DNA from: an uncultured Gemmatimonadales bacterium
GTDB taxonomy: Bacteria; Gemmatimonadota; Gemmatimonadetes; Longimicrobiales; RSA9
DNA: 64,000 nt
Direction of reading: 5' to 3'
NCBI GenBank assembly: GCA_963741945.1
Contig: CAVUKA010000003.1
Location: 32,001-96,000 of the forward strand
Each line of letters begins with the position of its first letter. Positions within the stretch are counted from its first letter, which is position 1. Under the pieces are notes generated by a model that worked only from the letters and a program-made list of their open reading frames with translations, was not told the origin of the DNA and did not search any database. Positions 14,657-38,244 of the stretch are shown piece by piece. The position numbers and the translations under genes are program-made.

Positions 14657-15414
14657 GCCGCACCTGCCATTTCCGCCTCGCGCAGCGCCGCCAGGTCCCG
14701 CGCGGCGACGAGGGGCTCACGCACGACGTCGTGGCGCACCACCCGGCCATCCTTCAGCTCCACCACGCGGTGGGCATAGCGGGCGATGTCGGGCTCGTGG
14801 GTCACCAGCACGATGGTCACGCCGTCGGCGTTCAGCTCCTGGAAGAGCGCCATCACTTCCACGGAAGTCACGGAGTCCAGGTTGCCCGTGGGCTCGTCCG
14901 CCAGCACGAGCGACGGCCGGGTCACCAGTGCCCGGGCGATGGCCACCCGCTGCTGCTGCCCACCCGACAGCTCCGCCGGGTCGTGCTCCAGGCGATCCCC
15001 GAGCCCCACGCGCTCCAGCGCCGTCCTGGCCAGCAGCCGCGTGTCCAGCTTCCGACCCGTCCGGTCGTACAGGAGCGGGAGCTCCACGTTCTCCAGCGCG
15101 CTCGTGCGCGGGAGCAGGTTGAATCCCTGAAAGACGAAGCCCAGCTTCCGGTTCCGCACGTCCGCCAGCGCGTTCTTCTCCAGCCCGTCCACGCGCTCGC
15201 CATCCAGCGCGTACGTGCCATCCGTGGGACGATCCAGGCACCCGAGGATGTTCATGAGCGTGGACTTCCCCGAGCCGGACGCGCCCATGATCGCCACCAT
15301 CTCGCCGCGCTGGAGCGTCAGGTCCACCCCCCGGAGCGCGTGCACCTCGTTCTGTCCGGCGCGGTACGTCTTCACCAGCCCCCGCGCTTCGATGACCGGC
15401 GTCTGCGCGCTCAT
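14653..15414 (-). CDS. ABC transporter ATP-binding subunit (MacB/LolD-like)
   Basis: GASGSGKST, LSGGQQQRVAIARA, LADEPTGNLD; start MSAQTP has a TGATG overlap. Confidence 0.93.
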
Positions 15415-16804
15415 CAGAACGCCCCCGGGGGCCGGCGGCCCCGGCTCGCGCTCGACTGGAACGGGTTGGCCGCCGACTCCGGCGACGCCGACCCGCTCAC
15501 GACGGCCGCGATCACCTGCAGCCCTGCCTTCACCGCCTCCGGCGCACGCACGATCACCGTGTTCTGGCCGTCCGTGAGACCGGTCCGCACAGGGCCACGG
15601 CCAGCTTGCCGTTCCCGTCCACGTACCAGAGCATGGCCCGGTCGGACGCCCCGGCGCTGCCACCGCCCGCGTACCCGGCGCCCCCCCGACGTTCCGCCCC
15701 GGCGCTGAAGCCGGCCGCACCGGCGCCCGCGGACCCGGCGCCCCGGGACGCGCTCCGGGGTGAAGCGCCGTCCGGAGACGCGTCGCCCGGAGAGGCGCTG
15801 TCGCGGCCGGCACCGGCCGCCGCACCGGCACCCGCACCCGCGGCCGCACCGGACTTCGCGGCGAGCCGCGCGCGAACCTGTTCCCGCATCTGCTCGGTGG
15901 GCTGGAAACGGAGCGCGGTGTTCGGGACGGTGAGCGCGTCCTGGGCGCTGTCGACGATGAACTCCACCGTGGCGGTCATGCCGGGAAGCAGCGCGCCCTC
16001 GGGGTTCTCCACGCGCACCACAGCGCTGTAGTTCACCACGTTCTCCTGCGTGGTGGAGGCGAGGCGCACCTGGCGGACGGTGCCGCTGAAGCTCCGCGAC
16101 GGATACGCCTGCACCGTGAAGCGCACCTCCTGACCCTGATGGATCCTGCCAATGTCGCTCTCATCCACGCTCGCCAGGATCTCCATCTGCCCCAGGTCGC
16201 GGGCGAGCACGAACAGCGTCGGCGCCGAGAAGCTCGCCGCCACCGTCTGCCCCACGTCCACGTTCCGCGACACCACCACGCCGTCGATCGGCGCCCGGAT
16301 CTCGGTGTACTGCAGGTTCCGCTTCGCCCGGTCCAGGTTGATCCTCGCCTGCTCATACGACGCCTTCGCCGCGTCGTACGTGTACTGCGCCTGGTCCTGC
16401 TCCGCGTCGGTCACCACCTGCTGCGCGTGCAGCGACGTCGAGCGCTCCAGCGCCCGCTTCGCCTGGTCCAGGTCCGCACGGTTCTTCGCCACGCTCGCTT
16501 CCGCCGACCGTACCTCCTGCTCCAGGATGGTCGGGTCGATCCGCGCCAGCAGCTGACCCCGCTTCACGTGGTCGTTGTAGTCCGCATCGATCTCCGCCAG
16601 CTGACCCGAGACCTGCGTCCCCACGTCCACTGTCTCCGTGGCCTGCAGCGTCCCCGTGGCCGTCACCGTGGATTCCACGTCCCCGCGGCCCACGCTCACG
16701 AACCTGTACTGCGGCGTCGCGCCATCGGTGCGCCGAACCAGTCCCCACGACAGCAGCGCCACTGCCGCCACCAGCGTCGGGATCAGGATCTTCTTCCGTT
16801 TCAT
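15414..16804 (-). CDS. MacA-like periplasmic adaptor, with a 1-nt deletion near 15592
   Basis: VGTQVSG, EIRAPIDGVV, VGQTVAASFSAPTLF, LLPGMTA; the conserved VRTGLTDGQNTV tail continues in a shifted frame to a TGA overlapping the next ATG. Confidence 0.88.
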
Positions 16805-18879: not shown

Positions 18880-20237
18880 CTGCCGCCGGCCTCCTGCGTG
18901 ACGCGCTCCTGCCGTCGTTCGGGCCGGAGGAGATCCGGTGGATCACGCTGCCCATCGTCGCCGGGTCGGCGGAAGCGTTGCTCCGCCTGGATCCGGTGGA
19001 GCCGGCGGTGTTCTGGGATGCGGGCGACGGCGACGGTGCCCACGCCCCGCTCGCCGGCTGGGGCGCGGCCCACGTGGTCACCGCCGAGGGACCCGGCCGG
19101 TTCGAGGATGTCCGGACTGCCGCCGAGCGCCTGTGGCCCCGGATTTCCGTGATGCCGATGGGCGGCGAGGGGCCCGTTCCGCCCCGGCTCTTCGGCGGCT
19201 TCTCCTTCCTCCCATCGCCGCCACCGCCGCCCTGGTCGGCGTTCGGCGCGGCCGCGTTCGTCCTCCCCCGTGTGCTGGTCGCCGGCGGCCCTTCCCCCCG
19301 GCTGGCCGTGGCGGCCTCGGCGGCGGACGCGGCCGGAGAAGGGCCGGAGCGGCTTTCGGCCCTCGTCGCCCGGATCGTGACCCTCCTCGCCGGCGACCGC
19401 TCGAACGGGGCGCGTCCGACGCCGGCGCTGGAGACGGCGGACGCCCCGTCGTCGGACGGATGGGCGGAAGCGCTGGCATCGATCCGGCTGCGGATCGCGG
19501 CGGGCGAGGCGGAAAAGATCGTTGCCGCGAGACGGCGGGAGATCCGCTTCGGCGGCGCGATCGATCCCGTGGCGGTGTTGCGCGCGCTGGCGGGCGGGAC
19601 GGCGGCGGAAGCGCGCTTCGCCTTCCGCCACGGCGGCGCGACGTTCCTGGGCGCCACGCCGGAGCGGCTGGTGTCGCGGCGCGGCCTTGCCGTGGGCACG
19701 GAGGCGCTGGCCGGCTCCATCGACGCCGGACGCGCCGAGCGGGACACCGAGCTGCTGCGCAGCCTGAAGGATGCGGAGGAGCACGGCTACGTCGTGCGTG
19801 CCATCGCCAGCGTGCTGGAGCCGCTGTGCGACGAGCTGGACTATCCGGCGACGCCGGGGATCCGGCACCTCCGGCACGTCCTCCACCTCCGCACGCCCTT
19901 CACCGGGCGGCTGTCGGGCCCGGTGCACGTGCTCGAGCTGGTGGACCGGCTCCACCCCACGCCCGCAGTGGGCGGAACGCCCGCGCGGGAGGCCGTGGCG
20001 TGGATCGCCGATCACGAGCCGTGGTCGCGGGGGTGGTACGCGTCGCCCGTGGGCTGGTTCGACGCCGCCGGCGATGGCGACTTCGTCGTGGCCCTCCGCT
20101 CGGCGCTCGTGGACGCTGATCGGGCGTACCTGTACGCGGGCGCGGGGATCGTACGCGACTCGGAGACGGACGCCGAGCTGGCGGAGACCGAAGTGAAGCT
20201 GCGCACCATGGCCGATGCGCTGGGGACCGCCGCGTGA
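18876..20237 (+). CDS. menF: Isochorismate synthase
   Basis: KIVAAR, FLGATPERL, ALAGS, KDAEEH, LHPTPAVGG, RGWYASPVGW, AGAGIV. Confidence 0.9.
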   Translation: MTAAGLLRDALLPSFGPEEIRWITLPIVAGSAEALLRLDPVEPAVFWDAGDGDGAHAPLAGWGAAHVVTAEGPGRFEDVRTAAERLWPRISVMPMGGEGPVPPRLFGGFSFLPSPPPPPWSAFGAAAFVLPRVLVAGGPSPRLAVAASAADAAGEGPERLSALVARIVTLLAGDRSNGARPTPALETADAPSSDGWAEALASIRLRIAAGEAEKIVAARRREIRFGGAIDPVAVLRALAGGTAAEARFAFRHGGATFLGATPERLVSRRGLAVGTEALAGSIDAGRAERDTELLRSLKDAEEHGYVVRAIASVLEPLCDELDYPATPGIRHLRHVLHLRTPFTGRLSGPVHVLELVDRLHPTPAVGGTPAREAVAWIADHEPWSRGWYASPVGWFDAAGDGDFVVALRSALVDADRAYLYAGAGIVRDSETDAELAETEVKLRTMADALGTAA

Positions 20238-22090
20238 GCGACTTCGCGCGCACCCCGGCCAACCTGCTCACCGAATGGGCGAGGCTGCTGCTGGGGAGCC
20301 TCCGCCGGGCCGGCGTGCGGGACGTGGTGCTCAGTCCGGGCGCGCGGAACACGCCGTTCACGTGGGCCGCGCTCCGCGACGAGGGGCTCCGCTGCCGCAC
20401 CATCATCGACGAGCGCTCGGCCGCCTTCTTCGCCGTCGGTCACGCCAAGATGACCGGCCGGCCGGTGGTCCTGCTGTGCACGTCCGGGAGCGCCGCCGCC
20501 AACTACTTCCCGGCCGTGGTGGAAGCGTCCGAGTCGGGCACTCCGCTCCTCCTGCTCACGGCCGACCGCCCGCTCGAGCTGCAGCACGCGGCAGCGCCCC
20601 AGACCATCGACCAGGCGCGCCTCTACGGCACGTTCGCCCGCGGCCATTTCGAGCTGGGCACGCCCGACCCCCGGGCCGCCATGCTCCGGGCCGTCGCCAG
20701 GATCGCCACCCAGGCCGTGGCCACGACGCGCTCGCCCGTGCCGGGCCCCGTCCAGGTCAACGCCCGCGCGCGCAAGCCGCTGGAGCCGGACACCGGCGAG
20801 GATGACGAGGCGCGGCGTCTCAGCCAGGAAGTGGACCGCCTGCTGGACTCCGTGCCCGCGATCTACGACGATGAGGCCGCTCCCGCGCCGGCCGGGATCG
20901 AAGCGCTCGCCGCCGCGTGCCGCCGCGCCCGCCGCGGGCTGATCGTATGCGGCCCGGAAAGTCCGTGGCGCGCAGCACCGGCCGACGATGTCGCCGCCCT
21001 CGCCCGCGCCACCGGCTTCCCGGTGGTGGCCGAGCCCGCGAGCCAGCAGCGGTTCGGGGCGCTCGGCGACCGCCCCGGCGTCGCCATCATCGACGCGTTC
21101 ACCGCTCTCCTCGGCGCCCAGCGCTTCCGCGACGGCTACGGCCCCGACCTCGTGGTCCAGCTGGGCCGGCCCCCGACGGCGGCGGAGTGGAACCGCTACC
21201 TCAAGCGCTGGGTCAGCGCCGAACGCTGGGTCATCGCCCCCGACGGCTGGTCGGATCCTCGAGGCTCGGCCGCCGGGTGGCTCCGGAGCCCGGCAGGGCC
21301 GGCGGTGCGGGCGCTGGCGCGCGCGCTCGGGACGGGCGCCGGTGGGCAGGACCCTGCGGGCGCGACGCCGGAGGCCGGGACCGCGGCGACGCCGGAGGCC
21401 GGGACGGCGGCGGCGCGCGCGGCCTGGGTGGAGCGGCTCGTCGGCGCCAATCGCGCCGCGCGCACCGCGATCGACGAGTCGCTCGAGGGCGAGTTCACGG
21501 AGGCCGCGGCGATCCGCGCCATCGTGGACGCCGTCCCCGCGGGCGGGATCCTGGCGCTGGGGAACAGCCTTCCGGTCCGTGAAGTGGAGATTTTCGCACC
21601 GGCGGCCGACCGGAGCCTGGCCGTGTGGTCGCAGCGCGGGGCGAACGGGATCGACGGCGTGGTTTCGGGCGCCGCCGGCGCCGCGGCCGCCACGGGTCGC
21701 CCGACCACGCTCATCATCGGCGACGTGAGCTTCACCCACGACGTGGGCGGGCTCGCCGCCGCGCGGACTGTCGACGCGCCGCTCACGGTGGTCGTGCTGA
21801 ACAACGGCGGCGGTCGGATCTTCGAGCGCCTGCCCATCGCCACCACGCTCGAGGGCGACGACGACTTCCTTGCCTGGCTGACGCCCCCGGCCATCGACAT
21901 CGCCGCAGCCGCCCGCACGTTCGGCGCGAGCTACGCCCGCGCCGGGGACGCGCGAGCGCTGGCGCGGGCGCTCGCCGCGGCGCGGGAGTCGCGGGGCGTC
22001 ACGGTGGTCGAGGTGGTGGTCCCGGGCGAGATGACGGCGCCGCACCACGCCGCCATGATCGCGCGCCTGGACGCGCGCATTCCCACGTGA
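20234..22090 (+). CDS. menD: SEPHCHC synthase
   Basis: SPGARNTP, DERSAAFFA, CTSGSAAANYFPAVVEA, TADRP, GNSLPVR, RGANGIDG, NNGGGRIF. Confidence 0.95.
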   Translation: MSDFARTPANLLTEWARLLLGSLRRAGVRDVVLSPGARNTPFTWAALRDEGLRCRTIIDERSAAFFAVGHAKMTGRPVVLLCTSGSAAANYFPAVVEASESGTPLLLLTADRPLELQHAAAPQTIDQARLYGTFARGHFELGTPDPRAAMLRAVARIATQAVATTRSPVPGPVQVNARARKPLEPDTGEDDEARRLSQEVDRLLDSVPAIYDDEAAPAPAGIEALAAACRRARRGLIVCGPESPWRAAPADDVAALARATGFPVVAEPASQQRFGALGDRPGVAIIDAFTALLGAQRFRDGYGPDLVVQLGRPPTAAEWNRYLKRWVSAERWVIAPDGWSDPRGSAAGWLRSPAGPAVRALARALGTGAGGQDPAGATPEAGTAATPEAGTAAARAAWVERLVGANRAARTAIDESLEGEFTEAAAIRAIVDAVPAGGILALGNSLPVREVEIFAPAADRSLAVWSQRGANGIDGVVSGAAGAAAATGRPTTLIIGDVSFTHDVGGLAAARTVDAPLTVVVLNNGGGRIFERLPIATTLEGDDDFLAWLTPPAIDIAAAARTFGASYARAGDARALARALAAARESRGVTVVEVVVPGEMTAPHHAAMIARLDARIPT

Positions 22091-32331: not shown

Positions 32332-32964
32332 TCAGTTGCCGATCGGGACCACGATCGGGTTGTTCTCGACCCGGACCTCCATGCCGTCCCCGTGCTGCTG
32401 GATCCCCACCAGCGGCCCGGTGCCGGTCTGGATCGCCAGGTTGTTGCTGCCGTCCTGCACGATGCCGTTGGCGCCCGTCAGGTCCAGCCCGTTCCCGTGG
32501 TACTCCAGGTAGTACTGGTTCCCGTCGCCCAGCTGCTGGACGTCGAGCGCGTTGGACGACCCGTAGAGCCACGCGCCCAGGCGATTGTCGCTCCCGGTCT
32601 GAAGCGCCAGGATCTGGTTGAACGACCCCTCCTGGTAGAGCACGCCAATGTTGCGCTGCCCGGTCTGGGTCAGCGACGCGGCGTTGAAGTCCCCGATCTG
32701 CTGGACCACGGCCGTGTTGCCGTCCCCCGTCCTGGCGACGTCGCCCGCCATGAGCGCGGCCGGCGTGACGATCGGGCCCGAGACGTTGGCCAGGTCGAGG
32801 AGCGAGAGGATCTGCACGTTCTGCGACGCCGGGAGCTGCTGGCCCGTGGCCTGCACCACCAGCGCCTCCGTCGCGCCCGTGGTGCCCTGTCCCGACAGCC
32901 CGCCCGCCGCCACTGCGGCGAGCGCGGCGGCCGTCACGACGATCTTCCGCCTCCGTGCAACCAT
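32332..32964 (-). CDS. csgB: Minor curlin (CsgB-like)
   Basis: Signal peptide then N-x5-Q-x-G-x2 repeats (NTAVVQQIGDF, NAASLTQTGQR, NIGVLYQEGSF, NALDVQQLGDG); follows csgG; alternative start 32994. The B versus A assignment rests on position. Confidence 0.7.
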   Translation of the reverse strand: MVARRRKIVVTAAALAAVAAGGLSGQGTTGATEALVVQATGQQLPASQNVQILSLLDLANVSGPIVTPAALMAGDVARTGDGNTAVVQQIGDFNAASLTQTGQRNIGVLYQEGSFNQILALQTGSDNRLGAWLYGSSNALDVQQLGDGNQYYLEYHGNGLDLTGANGIVQDGSNNLAIQTGTGPLVGIQQHGDGMEVRVENNPIVVPIGN

Positions 32965-32993
32965 CACCACCTCCACTCGTGAGCGTCGGAGCA

Positions 32994-34385
32994 TCAGTAG
33001 AAAGTCAGCCCGAGCGTCAGGTTCCACACCGAGTCGTTGCCGTGCCCGGTCTTCACTCCGTCGATACCGTCCATGAGCGCGTACTGGTTGAACAGCCCCA
33101 GGCTCACGCCCACCGACGGCGACAGCAGGCGCTCGATCCCGCCCCCGAGCGTCGCCACCGGGAACAGCTGCTCGCCGAAGTCGCCCAGCTGCGATTCCAC
33201 GTTCGGCTTCAGCACCCCGGCCCCCACCCGCAGGAAGGGCGAGGTCGTGGCGTGCGGGAGGAGGAAATACGTGGCGTCCAGCCCGACGGACACGGCCGTC
33301 CACTGGAAGCCACCCTCCACGCCGATGTCGCCGCCGTACGCGCTCAGGCCGAGGCCCCAGCGGGACGTCGGCATCCAGCGAAGCGACAGCCCGCCCGCCG
33401 GGCGGACCAGCGCGTTCCTGTAGTTCCCCTGGTACTGCCTCGCCCCGCCTTCCACCGAGAGCGAGAAGCCGCTCCGGTCACGGTCGTTCCGAAGCCCGTA
33501 CGGTCCGATCCCGGCCGCCGCGACCTTCGACCGCTCGTACCCGGCGAACGCCGGCCCGTGAATCTCAGCCGGGTCCTCCAGCGCCCACAGGCCCTCCTTC
33601 ACCCCTTCGATCACCAGCTCCTTCACCGCCTCCTGGATCGCTTCCGTGACCGCGACCACCGGCGGCTCGTTGTACGAGTACCCGACTTCCGACTCCAGCA
33701 GCCGGTCCACGTCCACGAAGCGGAAGATCCCAGCGTCCACCTGCTGCGACGCGATGGTCTTGCTGGTGGTCACCGTCCTGAGGACGCGACCGGTCTGGGT
33801 CGAGACCGCCCGCAGGTAGACCGTCACCTGGTCCTGGCGGAACTTCCCCGAGCCGCCCGCCCCGAAGTAGCGGACGCCCACGCCGCCCGTGAGCAGGTTC
33901 GTGTCGTACCCGACGATCCCGCCTTCGAGGATGATCCCGGCGTAGAGAAGGGGCGGGAGCGGCCCCAGCTTCTGCCCTTCAGGCCCTTCGTACTGCGCCC
34001 GGATCGACTGGATGATCTGCCGCTCGTTCAGCAGGTTCGACAGCCCCTCCCGCTCGATCGGCACGAACCACCCCGACTCCTCCAGCGCCTTGATCAGGAT
34101 GGACGTGGCCCCCTGCGTCACCGCCGTGGACCACGACGCCATGTTCTCCGCCGCCTTGTACTGCCCCGTCTCGTCACGGAACCGGTACACCGCCGCCACC
34201 ACCTGCTCCTTCGGCGCCGGGAGGCTGCGGAGCTCCTCGGTGATGCGCGTGGGCGAGGCGGGGATCGGCCGCGCCGTCTCCAGCGGGGCCGCGTAGTTGG
34301 CACAGGCGGCGGCGACGAGGCCGAACCAGGCGAGGACGGCCCTATTCAACATCTTACCACAAGCTCGCGTCGGATCGTATCGCAT
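32994..34385 (-). CDS. csgG: Curli secretion channel CsgG with C-terminal beta-barrel extension
   Basis: Lipobox AAA-C; VAAVYRFRDETGQYK, STAVTQGA, WFVPIEREGLSNLLNERQIIQ, EGGIVGYDTN, EPPVVAVTEAI; start is 34385 or 34352. Confidence 0.93.
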   Translation of the reverse strand: MRYDPTRACGKMLNRAVLAWFGLVAAACANYAAPLETARPIPASPTRITEELRSLPAPKEQVVAAVYRFRDETGQYKAAENMASWSTAVTQGATSILIKALEESGWFVPIEREGLSNLLNERQIIQSIRAQYEGPEGQKLGPLPPLLYAGIILEGGIVGYDTNLLTGGVGVRYFGAGGSGKFRQDQVTVYLRAVSTQTGRVLRTVTTSKTIASQQVDAGIFRFVDVDRLLESEVGYSYNEPPVVAVTEAIQEAVKELVIEGVKEGLWALEDPAEIHGPAFAGYERSKVAAAGIGPYGLRNDRDRSGFSLSVEGGARQYQGNYRNALVRPAGGLSLRWMPTSRWGLGLSAYGGDIGVEGGFQWTAVSVGLDATYFLLPHATTSPFLRVGAGVLKPNVESQLGDFGEQLFPVATLGGGIERLLSPSVGVSLGLFNQYALMDGIDGVKTGHGNDSVWNLTLGLTFY

Positions 34386-34398
34386 GCTGCCAGACTTC

Positions 34399-34833
34399 CT
34401 AGTATTGCGGGATGGTGACCGACGTCTGCTCGCCCGTGAGATTATTCGTGACCAGGACCTGTACGCCACCAAGACCGGGAACGATTTCGATGGTGAAGTC
34501 TCCGAGCTCATATCGACCAGGCTGCGTCAGGTCCAGATTCTCACCGAACCTGTCCATGATCAGTTCCCTGGACAGTGCAGATAGGATCTGCCGCTGCAAT
34601 CCTTGCTGGAAATCCGAGAGCGGATCCCTATTCAAGAAATCAACGTCCGGCGCTCGCTTCTGAGCCTGAGCGTTGCTCAGCAGCCATTGGCCATTCAAGG
34701 GATTTCCGCCGAACGCTGGATTGACGGGATGATAGACGAGTTGCTGGGCGCCGGCTGAATCGGCCAGCACCATGAGTGCGGCCGCGATGACGGCCACACC
34801 GCTCAACGCCCTGGTGACCCTGATACGCTTCAT
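34399..34833 (-). CDS. csgF: Curli assembly protein CsgF
   Basis: Signal peptide then QQLVYHPVNPAFGGNPLNGQWLLSNAQAQ, the conserved CsgF N-terminus. Confidence 0.92.
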   Translation of the reverse strand: MKRIRVTRALSGVAVIAAALMVLADSAGAQQLVYHPVNPAFGGNPLNGQWLLSNAQAQKRAPDVDFLNRDPLSDFQQGLQRQILSALSRELIMDRFGENLDLTQPGRYELGDFTIEIVPGLGGVQVLVTNNLTGEQTSVTIPQY

Positions 34834-34877
34834 TTCTGGTCTCGAATATGAAAGGGACGGGCCGCACCCGTGAACGC

Positions 34878-35480
34878 TCACCTCTGTCCGGAGTCTCCGG
34901 CGGCCGTGCTCATATCCCGCGGCTGGCGACGGATCAATTCTTCCCTCACGTAGGCTGCTGCCTCCTTCCCGAGCATCTCGACGACTTCATACCTTGGCTG
35001 AAGCTGCAGTTGAAAGAGGGCGTCCTCATTGAGAAACACCAAAACGCGACTTCCCAATCCTGGCGACGGCTGCTCCTGGATACGCACTGTGTAATTCGCT
35101 GCTCCATCTGGCGGCTCCCAAGCGCCGTAGAAAATGTCATAGAAATCGCGTCCTACCTTCGTCGCGGTTTCGTCCACGATCAGGCCATCGATCTGCATGT
35201 GTTGCTGAGCCGTGCCGGCGCGCGCTTGTACCTGCTCGGCTTGATGGGAACCCCGTCCTGCCCCGGCAATCGGTCGTACCGACGCCAGGAGATCCCGCGC
35301 CTCGTGGAACGACATTCCGGTGGGCAGCCGCAACAGACCTGAAACAGGGGTATCAGCAGTCAGTTCGTTTGCTGGAAACGCACAGCGTGCATCAGCGGAA
35401 GGCAATGCCGATATCCGCGCAGCCGAATGCGAAACGGCGACAATCAGAAGGCTGCTGACAATCCGCCCCACCTTCACCAT
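34878..35480 (-). CDS. csgE: Curli assembly protein CsgE
   Basis: IDGLIVDETATKVGRDFYDIFYGAW...IQEQPSPGLGSRVLV...LQPR; lies before csgF; start uncertain. Confidence 0.85.
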   Translation of the reverse strand: MVKVGRIVSSLLIVAVSHSAARISALPSADARCAFPANELTADTPVSGLLRLPTGMSFHEARDLLASVRPIAGAGRGSHQAEQVQARAGTAQQHMQIDGLIVDETATKVGRDFYDIFYGAWEPPDGAANYTVRIQEQPSPGLGSRVLVFLNEDALFQLQLQPRYEVVEMLGKEAAAYVREELIRRQPRDMSTAAGDSGQR

Positions 35481-35603
35481 CCACTCTCCAGCCTCAAAGT
35501 CCAACTCCGTGGTAACGTTCTGATGTAGTGCCCGCGAGCGAAAACCTAGAGATCTCGTTTGAACATCTGCACATTCCGCGCACCACTCCCCCTTGAGCGG
35601 AAA

Positions 35604-35633
35604 CTGTGGAGAGTGCTGCAGCACTCTCCACAG
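35604..35633 (-). terminator. Perfect 30-bp palindrome downstream of csgA
   Basis: CTGTGGAGAGTGCTGCAGCACTCTCCACAG is its own reverse complement; TTT follows on the minus strand. Confidence 0.7.
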
Positions 35634-35649
35634 CGGTTCCCTTTGCTGC

Positions 35650-36243
35650 TCAGTTGCTCTGCGTGATGGTGGCCGTGTTGTACGTCCCGGCCTGATCGAT
35701 CACGGCGACGTTCCAATCCGCAACCGCGTTCCAGCCCTGGTGGATCGTGGCGGAGTGGTGACTGCCGTCCTGCAGCACGGTCGCAGCGTTGTGCTGAGCC
35801 CACCCGCCGGTGTTGAAGCCCTGCGCCACGCTGGCGTCGTTGTAATTCCCGGTCTGGGTGATGCCGTAGGTGTTGTAGTACCCATGGCCGCCGTTGGTCC
35901 CCTGACCCGGATCGGCGAAGTTGTAGTTGCCCGTCTGCGTGATCGTAGCCGTGTTGTACCGGGCATCACCGCCGTTGTCGCCATAGCCCTGGCCAAGATA
36001 GGCAACGTTGTACTGGCCAGTCTGCGTGAGCGTGCCCGTATTGCCGATCGCGTAGCCCTGGTCCTGATCAATGATTCCGAGCTTCAGGATCCCCTGGCCA
36101 ATGTACCCGTCGTTGTATGCGCCGTCCTGGGTCATGGTGGCCGTGTTGTGATCGTTCACCTGCTGGATGTAGCCCTCGTTGCTCTGCGCGAACACCGGGG
36201 TGGCACACAGCCCGAAGGCTGCGATAAGAAGGAACTTCCTCAT
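35650..36243 (-). CDS. csgA: Major curlin (CsgA-like amyloid subunit)
   Basis: Signal MRKFLLIAAFGLCATPVFA; repeats NTATMTQDG, NTGTLTQTG, NTATITQTG, NTYGITQTG, NAATVLQDG, NVAVIDQAG; ends NTATITQSN; GAGGAG RBS. Confidence 0.88.
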   Translation of the reverse strand: MRKFLLIAAFGLCATPVFAQSNEGYIQQVNDHNTATMTQDGAYNDGYIGQGILKLGIIDQDQGYAIGNTGTLTQTGQYNVAYLGQGYGDNGGDARYNTATITQTGNYNFADPGQGTNGGHGYYNTYGITQTGNYNDASVAQGFNTGGWAQHNAATVLQDGSHHSATIHQGWNAVADWNVAVIDQAGTYNTATITQSN

Positions 36244-36262
36244 GGTGTGGTGTCTCCTCACG

Positions 36263-36295
36263 AAAAAGTGGGTTGCCGTTTCTCGGCAGTGACCC
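36263..36295 (-). terminator. Leader intrinsic terminator (riboswitch expression platform)
   Basis: GGGT(CAC)TGCCG-AGAAA-CGGCAACCC-AC-TTTTT between the aptamer and the csgA RBS. Confidence 0.65.
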
Positions 36296-36400
36296 TTCTT
36301 CGGCGACCGGACGATCTCGTGTGCACGAGTCTGCAGCCTCGCCATGAGATTCCTGGCTTTGCGGACCGGCTTCGCAGCCGGGGTGCCTTTTTCGGAAGAG
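36296..36400 (-). ncRNA. Cyclic di-GMP-I (GEMM-I)-like riboswitch aptamer
   Basis: CTTCCGAAAAAGGCACC-CCGGCT-GCGA-AGCCGG-TCCGCAAAGCC-AGGAATCTC...GAGATCGTCCGGTCGCCGAAG: GNRA-capped P2, CGCAAAGCC junction, P3 and 3' GCCGAA, matching GEMM-I order by eye. Confidence 0.72.
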
Positions 36401-36642
36401 AGACTTGTTGCGCACTTCCGTGCGCTCGAGTCGGCACGACACCGGAGATCCCGGCCGGTGGCTCGCGCCGTCGGGCCACTCCTACTCCACGTTCCGTTCC
36501 GGCGGTCTACGGAGCGTCAAAGGCGCGTCAAATATGCTGGGAGACAATGCGTTGAGGATCGGTCGGACCGCGGCGGATCACGTCCGGCCGGCACGATTCC
36601 GGGCACCCGGACGCGTTTCGTTACAACGGCCGGCCCGGGCCT

Positions 36643-38025
36643 TCAGTCCCCCATCTCCCCCACGTCAATGTCGTACTTCCGGATCAGGCGGTCGAGGCGG
36701 GGTCGTGAGATCTCGAGGATGCGGGCGGCCTGGCGCTTGTTGCCGCCGGTGCGCTCGAGGGCGGCGAGGAGCTGGCGGCGCTCGGCGTCGTCGAGGGTGG
36801 CGGTGGAGAGGGAGTCCCCGGCCTCGAGGACGCCGCCCCCGCCCCTGCCGATCCCCAGGTGCTCGACGCGCAGCGCGGTGCCCTGGGCGAGGACGGCGGC
36901 GCGGGCGATGGCGTTCTCGAGCTCGCGCACGTTGCCGGGCCAGTCGTGCTCGCGGAGTGCGCGCATGACGTCGGGCGGGATGACCTTCCCGGGGAGCCCG
37001 AGGGAGCGGATGGCGCGGGTGAGGAAGTGGTCGGCGAGGGCCGGGATGTCGCCCGGGCGGTCGCGCAGCGGCGGGACGTGGATCTCGACCACGCGGAGCC
37101 GGTAGTAGAGGTCTTCGCGGAACGAGCCGTCGCGGACCATGGCCTCGACGGGGCGGTGCGTGGCGGCGATGACGCGGGCCAGGGCCTGACGCGGCTGCTC
37201 GCTTCCGACGGGGTAGAACTCCTTCTCCTGGAGGACACGCAGGAGCTTGGCCTGGAAGGAGGGGGCGGTGTCGCCGATCTCGTCGAGGAAAATGGTCCCG
37301 TGCCCCGCCAGCTCGAAGCGCCCCTTCCGGTCCGACACCGCGCCGGTGAACGACCCCCTCACGTGGCCGAACAGCTCGCTCTCCAGCAGCTGGTCGGGAA
37401 CGGAAGTGCAGTTCACGGCGACGAACGGCTCCGCGGCGTGACCGGAATGCTCGTGGATGGCCCGGGCGACGACCTCCTTCCCGGTCCCGGTCTCCCCCCG
37501 GATCAGCACCGGCGCGGCCGTGCCCGCCACCCGGCCGATGGTCTTGTAGATCTCCAGCATGGCCCGCTCGCGGCCGATGATCCTCGGCGACGACGACGCG
37601 TAACGCCCCTTCTCGCCGTCCCCCTCCTCGACCGACTCCCCCGCCGCCTTCTCCCGCGCGCGACGGTCCGCGAAGCAGCGCGTGAGCAGGTCGTCCAGCT
37701 CCTCCGGGTCGAGCGGCTTGGCCAGATAGTCGTACGCGCCGGCGCGGATCGCCTCCACCGCCGTCTCCATCTCGTCCTTCCCCGTCACCACCACCACGTC
37801 CACGCCGGCGTTCGTGGCCTTCAGCCGCGCGAGCAGCTCCAGCCCGCTCAGCCCGGGCATGTACAGGTCCGTGACCACCACGCCGGGGCGGAAGTCAGCC
37901 ACCTCGCCGAACGCCTGCTCCGCGCTGTCCGCCGTCCGGACCGCGTACCCCTCGCGGGCCAGCCAGAACTCGAGCGTGTCCCGCACGTCCGCGTCGTCGT
38001 CCACCACCAGGACCTTCCGCTCCAT
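36643..38025 (-). CDS. Sigma-54-dependent response regulator (REC-AAA+-HTH)
   Basis: [52 protein letters not shown]. Confidence 0.93.
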   Translation of the reverse strand: MERKVLVVDDDADVRDTLEFWLAREGYAVRTADSAEQAFGEVADFRPGVVVTDLYMPGLSGLELLARLKATNAGVDVVVVTGKDEMETAVEAIRAGAYDYLAKPLDPEELDDLLTRCFADRRAREKAAGESVEEGDGEKGRYASSSPRIIGRERAMLEIYKTIGRVAGTAAPVLIRGETGTGKEVVARAIHEHSGHAAEPFVAVNCTSVPDQLLESELFGHVRGSFTGAVSDRKGRFELAGHGTIFLDEIGDTAPSFQAKLLRVLQEKEFYPVGSEQPRQALARVIAATHRPVEAMVRDGSFREDLYYRLRVVEIHVPPLRDRPGDIPALADHFLTRAIRSLGLPGKVIPPDVMRALREHDWPGNVRELENAIARAAVLAQGTALRVEHLGIGRGGGGVLEAGDSLSTATLDDAERRQLLAALERTGGNKRQAARILEISRPRLDRLIRKYDIDVGEMGD

Positions 38026-38244
38026 GGCCACGCCGCCTCCCGCCTCCGGGAAAAGAGTCATCCTTGATGCCTGTCATCTTTCACAACACCCGATACCAGC
38101 TTATCTTGCGTGGCGCAACTTCGCGCGTCCCGCGCTGCGCTCCGGTCGGCCCATCGGCCGACCCCAACCCCCTGGCGCTCCGGGACGTAGTCGGCCCCTG
38201 TCTGCACTCTCCGGCGCCTGGACGCCGGCAGCGCCACGCACCCC

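Follow-up and report, generated by a model that had tools for sequence, protein, structure and literature searches.

A class I c-di-GMP aptamer of a conserved subtype precedes the curlin operon of an uncultured Gemmatimonadales bacterium and may act as an ON switch

Can the mRNA of a curli fibre subunit respond directly to the second messenger cyclic dimeric guanosine monophosphate (c-di-GMP)? In Escherichia and Salmonella, c-di-GMP raises curli production through protein regulators of csgD transcription, and in the well-studied enterobacteria the signal is known to reach curli only by way of such a protein cascade. At the locus analyzed here, by contrast, c-di-GMP would act directly on the leader of the csgA mRNA. 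The locus lies in a stretch of 64,000 nucleotides (hereafter the window; contig CAVUKA010000003.1, positions 32,001 to 96,000) from the 4.09-Mb assembly of an uncultured Gemmatimonadales bacterium (GCA_963741945.1; G000), and coordinates below are those of the window unless prefixed with a contig. A reading of the letters alone, referred to here as the sequence-only reading, had proposed that this leader carries a variant class I c-di-GMP (GEMM-I) riboswitch followed by a terminator, and that the two form an ON switch for curli. We find that the csgA-leader element belongs to the class I c-di-GMP riboswitch family, and we put at a little better than even (roughly 0.55) the probability that the csgA-csgE-csgF-csgG leader carries a working riboswitch of this class, of the G20 type and acting as an ON switch. 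If this is true, the fibre-subunit mRNA reads c-di-GMP directly, which would be the shortest possible path from the second messenger to a functional amyloid.

The assignment to the family rests on the Rfam model RF01051 (length 87, gathering score 35 bits), which matches the minus strand from 36397 to 36299 over its full length (model positions 1-87 of 87) with 46.6 bits and an E-value of 5.9e-6 for the window. The covariance-model check proposed with the sequence-only reading thus gave a full-length match above the gathering score. The match is the sole Rfam match within the 64 kb, and no member of the same clan scores better. In a scan of the whole assembly, the csgA aptamer has an E-value of 9e-8 and is one of five RF01051 matches, whereas 14 control genomes gave none (0/14). 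The parts that had been listed on the minus strand, namely P2 with its GCGA cap, the junction, P3 with an insert, GCCGAA, a downstream hairpin, U5, and a ribosome-binding site, are all present as described, and the csgA start lies 56 nt past the aptamer. The source genome contains 11 GGDEF matches over the cut-off, and should therefore be able to make c-di-GMP.

Residue numbers in the following are those of Vc2, transferred through the alignment of the csgA-leader sequence to RF01051. In a Vc2-like register, P1 is formed by CUCUUCCG (36400-36393) and CG-AA-GAAGGG (36302-36293), giving 8 bp with an AA bulge. This register follows from applying the G14-C93 apex and bulged A95 of Vc2 (PMC3764141) to the csgA leader, and it replaces two earlier P1 models that lacked the CG/CG apex and have nearly equal energies. 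Comparative support comes from 28 leaders of the subtype described below, 27 of them from the source family and one from G326, a genome of a different family in the same order. The leader statistics do not include four sequences: L001 duplicates L005, contig ends truncate L018 and the second copy of L034, and L021 has no convincing start codon. Pairing is kept in 90.7% of cells overall, compared with 27-50% when the partners are slid by 1-3 columns. It reaches 100% in P2, with changes on both sides in 3/6 stem pairs, 93.5% in P3 (6/11 pairs), and 77.7% in P1 (3/8 pairs). Since the 28 leaders are related sequences, statistics on them overstate significance. Across 36 aptamers of the clade, 12 of the 17 pairs in P2 and P3 have changed on both sides, so that these two helices have covariation support.

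The residues that contact the ligand are retained: G20 (36387), A47 (36360), and C92 (36303), together with the equivalents of A48 and A49. In Vc2, G20 contacts the G-alpha base of c-di-GMP (PMC6140456, PMC4744006); G20, A47, A48, and C92 are pocket residues, and A47-A49 are among the highly conserved nucleotides (PMC3764141). A G at position 20 goes with c-di-GMP, whereas an A at this position marks the class that recognizes 3',3'-cyclic GMP-AMP (cGAMP) (PMC6140456), and the RF01051 alignment bears out the G, and with it the c-di-GMP type, that had been read at this position. Both residues of the interhelical Watson-Crick pair described as universally conserved, C44 (36363) and G83 (36312), are also present in the sequence, and their pairing is predicted.

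The P2 internal loop departs from the consensus, as had been noticed. It reads ACC/UCC instead of AAA/GAC, so that A25 is replaced by C and G42 by U, while A23 and C44 are retained. This loop was termed "highly conserved" by Weinberg et al. 2007 (PMC1950547), and A25 and G42 are on a list of highly conserved residues (PMC3764141). In the aptamer alignment, the loop change co-occurs with a GCGA or GUGA tetraloop in P2 rather than GAAA, and with a plain UCUC/GAGA helix in P3. The csgA aptamer accordingly has a GNRA-type P2 tetraloop, GCGA, but no 11-nt-type receptor in P3, whereas its canonical relatives carry a receptor-like CUA...AUG motif at the P3 site of the UCUC/GAGA helix. By analogy with group I introns, UCUC/GAGA may serve as a helical tetraloop receptor.

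The deviation is real, but it is not peculiar to the csgA leader, and the label "variant" is better replaced by that of a class-wide subtype with its contacts intact. Four of the five aptamers of the source genome have the ACC/UCC loop. A loose pattern for the subtype matched 44 places in 27/73 family genomes; three of these (L009 in G035, L015 in G065, and G036:C6:2044354) were dropped as looking like chance or coding matches, so that 41 plausible copies in 25 genomes remain. With a strict pattern, 30/401 phylum genomes gave 40 matches in all, spread over six families of one class, and the 19 genomes of the other three families gave none. Reversed patterns had no match in either the 73-genome or the 401-genome scan. 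The denominators include unpublished genomes (G017 and G020 in the 73-genome set, G038 in the 401-genome sets), none of which matched there. RF01051 itself has matches in 38/61 genomes (25/36 in f1 and 12/12 in f3), a tally that includes the same three unpublished genomes with one match each; no sequence of theirs is used here. Subtype members score ~31-56 bits, compared with 60-81 bits for canonical relatives. The genes downstream of the 28 subtype leaders include those for SpaA-like adhesin-domain proteins, subtilases, and a DUF11 protein, and 12 of the 19 that were scanned have no Pfam match. Judged by its sequence, the ACC/UCC form is a conserved subtype with intact ligand contacts, neither a degenerate copy nor a new class, and the P2-loop change is a feature of the subtype that lies outside the ligand contacts. 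Because two positions held highly conserved in the family are altered, the subtype amounts to a natural experiment on what folding and affinity owe to the P2 internal loop and to the tetraloop receptor.

How the aptamer would control csgA can be approached by folding. In the minimum free energy (MFE) fold of the full leader, GUCUCUCUUCCGAAAAAG (36404-36387), which comprises the P1 5' strand and the junction A run, pairs with CUUUUUCGUGAGGAGAC (36268-36252), which comprises the U run and the Shine-Dalgarno sequence. The duplex has an energy of -20.8 kcal/mol (z -6.5 against 300 shuffles), the second-strongest cognate value among the 27 family leaders after L014 and L025 (-21.3). With this helix, the Shine-Dalgarno sequence is 1.0% unpaired in the free leader, compared with 66.6% when the aptamer is locked. 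In G326 the corresponding values are 22% and 52%, and the sequestering strand is a different one, the P3 5' strand GUCUCUCC pairing with GGAGAGAC. In each of these two csgA leaders, none of 40 shuffled upstream regions occluded the site as well as the native one (0/40). In 22/28 subtype leaders, the full leader exposes the Shine-Dalgarno sequence less than the 3' platform does on its own (Wilcoxon p 4e-4, a value overstated by the relatedness of the leaders).

These predicted structures suggest the following model. In the absence of ligand, 36404-36387 would pair with 36268-36252 and the downstream hairpin-U5 would form, so that translation, and possibly transcription, would be off. Binding of c-di-GMP would make the aptamer lock P1. 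The locked P1 would hold the pyrimidine-rich 5' strand, leaving the U-tract and the Shine-Dalgarno sequence unpaired with it and the ribosome-binding site open. It would also consume the GGG foot of the hairpin, leaving a 5-bp hairpin 7 bases from the U run, and any termination would be relieved. Both competitions for the P1 strands, that for the terminator foot and that for the anti-Shine-Dalgarno strand, agree in sign, from which we infer an ON switch. The ON switch for curli envisaged by the sequence-only reading is supported in its sign by folding; what that reading overlooked is the stronger, Shine-Dalgarno-sequestering helix with its 18-nt 5' strand. On this model, the leader offers a test case of whether a single P1 strand can govern a terminator foot and a ribosome-binding site at once.

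The same module is found at a second, more distant locus. Curli genes are rare in the source group: Curlin_rpt is found in two of 61 related genomes, G000 and G001 (which belong to the same genus), and CsgF in three of 401 phylum genomes, G000, G326, and G110. The leader and signal peptide of G001 are identical letter for letter to those of the window. In G326, a 357-aa curlin gene is preceded, at a distance of 55 nt, by an RF01051 match (52.3 bits) that belongs to the same subtype, the gene order is that of the window (csgA, csgE, csgF, csgG, second curlin), and a sigma-54 response regulator is encoded nearby; CsgF is 60% identical between G000 and G326. The two leaders have in common the aptamer, an identical 3' strand GCCGAAGAAGGG, a UGCCG/CGGCA hairpin, which G326 keeps without the U run, and a block GAGACACCAC..CCAUG.

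Several results weigh against a switch of the kind proposed. The csgA aptamer has C and U in place of A25 and G42, two residues listed as highly conserved (PMC3764141). Cognate duplexes between the two strands of the OFF helix average -14.4 kcal/mol and non-cognate ones -14.0 kcal/mol (permutation p 0.25), the duplex reaches z <= -2 in only 7/27 leaders, and only 18/28 native upstream regions do better than the mean of their shuffles; anti-Shine-Dalgarno pairing is generic across the family rather than leader-specific. The same comparison of cognate and non-cognate strands for P1 gave p 0.82, with no leader-specific covariation, and the identity of the G001 leader means that it contributes zero covariation evidence on the platform. 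As a whole, the leader folds only slightly better than shuffled sequences in G000 (z -1.83) and not better in G326 (z 0.27). At equilibrium, the locked state of the csgA leader lies 12.9 kcal/mol above the free fold, which is near the upper limit of what the ligand could pay, so the switch would have to act co-transcriptionally. Finally, a local hairpin at 36225-36269 on the minus strand (-11.1 kcal/mol), formed by ACUUUUUCGUG and CAUGAGGAAGU, places the Shine-Dalgarno sequence in a 14-nt loop and the AUG in its stem; when the aptamer is locked, this leaves the AUG 1.6% unpaired, which could blunt an ON response. With this local hairpin and the long-range helix, the U run has two possible partners.

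Other explanations of the leader differ from the proposed one in the mechanism, in the sign, or in the ligand. In a purely transcriptional ON switch, the mechanism of the sequence-only reading, the hairpin at 36295-36270 with U5 would terminate transcription, an extended P1 would give readthrough, and the Shine-Dalgarno pairing would be incidental. The hairpin and U5 exist, preceded by an A-rich stretch, and the free fold of a transcript cut after U5 contains the hairpin (-11.2 kcal/mol), which loses its foot when P1 is locked: its ACCC goes from 8% to 100% unpaired, and locking costs only 5.7 kcal/mol relative to the free fold at this stage. The proposal that an extended P1 captures the 5' arm of the terminator holds in so far as the P1 3' strand GAAGGG overlaps the GGG foot, although the register given for it, CTCTCTTC with GAAGAAGGG, has been replaced by the Vc2-like one. 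As a terminator, however, the structure is modest. Its stem of 5 bp and 4 bp is interrupted by a 3-nt bulge, a 2-nt spacer separates it from a run of only five U, and a consensus terminator scan of the minus strand did not call it because of the bulge and the two-base gap. A run of at least four U follows the hairpin in 4/28 subtype leaders (the csgA leader, L004, L022, and L030) and is missing from 23/27 family leaders and from the G326 ortholog; the hairpin-U5 terminator was found only in the source genus. Moreover, pairing with the A5 run in the long-range helix fully accounts for U5, and L004 has a junction AAAAGG matched by a downstream CCUUUU, as would be expected of a U run whose role is to pair with the junction. 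This comparative evidence (a buried site without a U run in G326, occlusion in 22/28 leaders, U runs in 4/28, and the matching change in L004) favours the ribosome-binding-site mechanism. The models thus point to translational control as the main or an additional mechanism, with the terminator probably in a secondary role, and we regard a purely transcriptional switch as unlikely. It is less probable still that the aptamer is real and its net effect is not ON, that is, OFF or neutral, for example through the AUG-burying hairpin or an effect on mRNA stability. The AUG, 1.6% unpaired in the locked state, is 77% unpaired in the free one, and in six of the 28 subtype leaders the full leader does not hide the Shine-Dalgarno sequence any further. 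Set against this, the Shine-Dalgarno sequence is exposed in its 14-nt loop above a stem that contains G-U pairs, so that a ribosome could load and open the hairpin, the G326 leader does not bury its AUG (78% unpaired when locked), both P1-strand competitions point to ON, and enterobacteria make more curli when c-di-GMP is raised.

The altered loop could also mean that aptamers of the ACC/UCC-GYGA subtype recognize another ligand, bind c-di-GMP much more weakly, or are decaying. The replaced A25 and G42 (PMC3764141), the missing canonical tetraloop receptor, and the lower scores of the subtype are what such a change might look like, but G20, A47, A48, C92, and C44:G83 are all retained, RF01051 is not outscored by other families of its clan, and GYRA-loop GEMM RNAs without a receptor are known (PMC1950547). 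Strong conservation with compensatory changes, in 30/401 phylum genomes and six families, argues for function, and we consider this explanation quite improbable. That the element is a chance resemblance in GC-rich DNA and no riboswitch at all is effectively refuted. The window does have a G+C content of 71.1%, and the score exceeds the cut-off by just 11.6 bits; against these stand the genome-wide E-value and the empty control genomes, the correct position and strand directly upstream of a gene, a G001 sequence that is 100% identical, a conserved counterpart in G326, and the reversed-pattern control, with 0 matches compared with 44 and 40 for the patterns themselves. A wider reading, which we hold to be rather doubtful, treats the subtype as a rewired GEMM-I form with a changed P2 loop, a helical receptor, and a reusable ON platform, the latter consisting of the pyrimidine-rich P1 strand doubling as anti-Shine-Dalgarno strand and a UGCCGG hairpin; curli genes and cassette would then be mobile between lineages as a self-contained c-di-GMP-responsive amyloid module without a CsgD-type transcription factor. 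The module occurs in G000/G001 as well as in G326, a member of a family from which the subtype is otherwise nearly absent (1/70). In its bolder version, the rewiring would also shift affinity or ligand preference.

The platform recurs outside curli loci: the hairpin (U)GCCGG...CCGGC(A) and the block GAAGGAGACAC before the AUG are found ahead of unrelated genes (L020/L021 of G072/G073 and other subtype leaders), and from these sequences it looks as if aptamer and platform were duplicated jointly as one cassette.

Compared with known systems, the csgA element is a further case of a well-known riboswitch class, in a conserved subtype and with an unusual target, and it leaves the known picture of the class unchanged. 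For GEMM RNAs, terminators that overlap the aptamer and stems that cover the Shine-Dalgarno sequence were already among the earliest proposals (PMC1950547). The csgA aptamer is like Vc2 and Vc1 in its P1/P2/P3 fold, in G20/A47/C92, C44:G83, and the J2/3 AAA, and in its GNRA-type P2 loop and a P1 apex with a G-C pair and bulged A. It differs from them in having ACC/UCC instead of AAA/GAC and GCGA instead of GAAA, in its P3, where a plain UCUC/GAGA helix with a 27-nt insert stands in place of an 11-nt-type receptor, and in its target, a curlin operon. In Vibrio cholerae, an adhesin gene is under the positive control of Vc1, itself a class I c-di-GMP riboswitch (PMC4744006), and the same sign of control over a surface or adhesion gene is what we predict for the csgA element. 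The GYRA-loop GEMM RNAs of Weinberg et al. 2007 (PMC1950547) share with the csgA aptamer the loop type (GCGA, with GUGA in relatives), the lack of a receptor-like sequence in the second hairpin, and a downstream hairpin that overlaps the 3' side of the aptamer; the difference is that the internal loop termed highly conserved in that paper is replaced in the csgA aptamer. The GEMM-Ib riboswitches for 3',3'-cGAMP, such as Geobacter Gs1761, share the fold and the Rfam family but have A20 (PMC6140456), where the csgA aptamer has G.

The link between c-di-GMP-I riboswitches and curli is already in print for tandem glycine/c-di-GMP-I riboswitches, where two of six associated open reading frames (ORFs) are curli-related, one of them CsgG (Sherlock et al. 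2022, PMC9481103). These tandems resemble the csgA element in placing c-di-GMP-I upstream of curli-related genes, with a proposed logic of commitment to biofilm matrix production. They differ in that the csgA aptamer is single, with no glycine riboswitch in the window, stands directly before csgA, and belongs to another subtype and probably another lineage. They are the nearest case we found: in searches of the literature outside subscription journals and supplements, no single c-di-GMP-I riboswitch standing directly before csgA came up, and a search for c-di-GMP riboswitches together with "Gemmatimonadetes" found nothing. If it works as proposed, the leader would also supply a compact ON-type part of natural origin from an organism with a high GC content.

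The coordinates of the leader and operon features are collected in Table 1. Upstream of csgA lie the gene for a sigma-54-type response regulator, on the same strand, and, farther out, one for a PAS/GAF histidine kinase. The sigma-54-dependent regulator (REC - AAA+ - Fis HTH) adjoins the curli operon both in G000 (36643-38061 (-)) and in G326 (L043:9747-11117 (+)). A sigma-54 promoter pattern had no site in 36400-36650, and its 58 matches in the whole window compare with 89.6 expected by chance; no sigma-70-like promoter was found in 35600-36700. On the plus strand, the terminator scan called three sites (36366-36384, 35823), which were rejected, two being the reverse complement of P2 with the A run. 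No relative of CsgA at E <=1e-5 was found among 158 candidate proteins of 108-345 aa.

Table 1. Features of the csgA leader and the curli operon on the minus strand of the window
Feature	Position	Strand	Basis or remark
c-di-GMP-I (GEMM-I) aptamer	36299..36397	-	RF01051 match
P1 5' strand CUCUUCCG	36393..36400	-	Within longer pyrimidine-rich strand 36404-36387, alternative partner of U-tract and Shine-Dalgarno
A5 run, J1/2	36392-36388	-	Sequence
G at the G20 position	36387	-	RF01051 alignment
P2	36361..36386	-	GC/GC base, internal loop, stem and tetraloop; RF01051 alignment
P2 stem CCGGCU/AGCCGG	36381-36376 / 36371-36366	-	GCGA tetraloop 36375-36372
P2 internal loop ACC/UCC	36384-36382 / 36365-36363	-	C44 equivalent = 36363
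CGCAAAGCC junction	36362-36355	-	Sequence
J2/3 AAA	36358..36360	-	A47 equivalent = 36360
P3	36305..36357	-	27-nt inserted hairpin; G83 equivalent = 36312, in CG bulge
P3 arms AUCUC/GAGAU	36350-36346 / 36318-36314	-	27-nt insert between
GCCGAA	36304-36299	-	Sequence
G-C92-C93-G94-AA-GAAGGG: ligand-contact C (36303) and P1 3' strand	36293..36304	-	RF01051 alignment, folding
Platform hairpin GGGU(CAC)UGCCG-AGAAA-CGGCA-ACCC	36270..36295	-	-11.2 kcal/mol; GGG foot overlaps P1 3' strand
U5 run	36263..36267	-	Two bases past hairpin; also partner of J1/2 A5 run in predicted long-range helix
3' strand of predicted OFF helix CUUUUUCGUGAGGAGAC (U run and Shine-Dalgarno)	36252..36268	-	MFE fold
Shine-Dalgarno GAGGAGA	36259-36253	-	Nine bases 5' of ATG
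csgA ATG	36243	-	Translation
csgA-like curlin gene, 197 aa, signal peptide MRKFLLIAAFGLCATPVFAQ	35650..36243	-	Curlin_rpt 2.1e-20
csgE	34878-35624	-	CsgE 5e-20; ORF limits, true start probably later
csgF	34399-34881	-	CsgF 4.4e-37; ORF limits, true start probably later
csgG	32994-34511	-	CsgG 1.6e-64; ORF limits, true start probably later
Second curlin-repeat gene, possibly CsgB-like	32332..33303	-	Curlin_rpt 5.7e-8; ORF limits, true start probably later

Comparison of the related curli loci gave some further observations. From the response-regulator gene to the CsgA signal peptide, G000 and G001 share 98.9% identity in an alignment of 728 bases (36174-36900; L006 = G001:C1:1-6000), and in the mature curlin-repeat region (35650-36173) they diverge abruptly, with only scattered repeats aligning. 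By sequence, this pattern suggests that the fibre subunit may be rapidly turned over or replaced while the control region stays fixed. A second RF01051 match of G326 lies at G326:C1:3536808-3536898 (+) and scores 51.2 bits, and in the family of G326 RF01051 was found in 0/12 genomes of one sample and the subtype pattern in 1/70 genomes (G326 itself), a distribution that hints at transfer as the way in which the riboswitches might have reached G326. The curli locus of G110, the only one in the phylum sample without a riboswitch, gave no Rfam match even at E <=1. It lies near a divergent gene for an HTH - receiver - PilZ protein (L044:7198-8133 (+), G110:C7); going by its domains, this protein might link c-di-GMP to curli in G110.

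We also searched 80 metagenomic CsgF loci, L039, and L044 with a GEMM-I model, R1, built from the source clade only, and obtained no match at E <=1, although many of the contigs are short and may miss the csgA/csgB leader; the sole R1 match among the 83 sources was the positive control L043 (66.2 bits). At the gathering threshold, Rfam matched one tRNA only, and no riboswitch, in the 16 longest metagenomic CsgF loci (140 kb). A CsgF search of genome contigs returned one distant locus, in Pseudomonas jinjuensis (36% identity), with no riboswitch, and a leader-specific DNA pattern had 0 matches in metagenome contigs. Since many of the metagenomic contigs are short, the absence of riboswitch-curli coupling from the loci searched outside the phylum is weak evidence of rarity. 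Words from 35650-36650 of the window were present at only 4-26% in four DNA metagenome runs, and a search for RNA runs containing that interval returned none.

The source genome also contains a second GEMM-I class. The aptamer at G000:C1:16281-16368 (+) (L001:1501-1588) has an A at the G20 position (CAGAGCAAA), a J2/3 of CGCAGAG instead of CGCAAAG (A48->G), and a GCUG/CAGC P1. This class scores 50-70 bits, and it recurs in relatives (L132, L135-L140, L142-L144) and makes up 11 of the 36 aptamers of alignment A3. The AAA linker is reported to be present in all but 2 of 322 GEMM RNAs (PMC1950547). Since A20 marks cGAMP riboswitches and a near-universal linker is changed, the sequence allows that the A20/A48->G class may sense a different dinucleotide. 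In the source genome, its aptamer sits before the gene of a secreted subtilase with PKD domains and is one of three RF01051 aptamers within ~5.5 kb (G000:C1:14830-20287, L007), at 14830-14923 (-), 16281-16368 (+), and 20199-20287 (-). The genes that follow these three encode a protein with a SpaA-like prealbumin fold, the subtilase-PKD protein, and a protein of 542 aa without a Pfam match.

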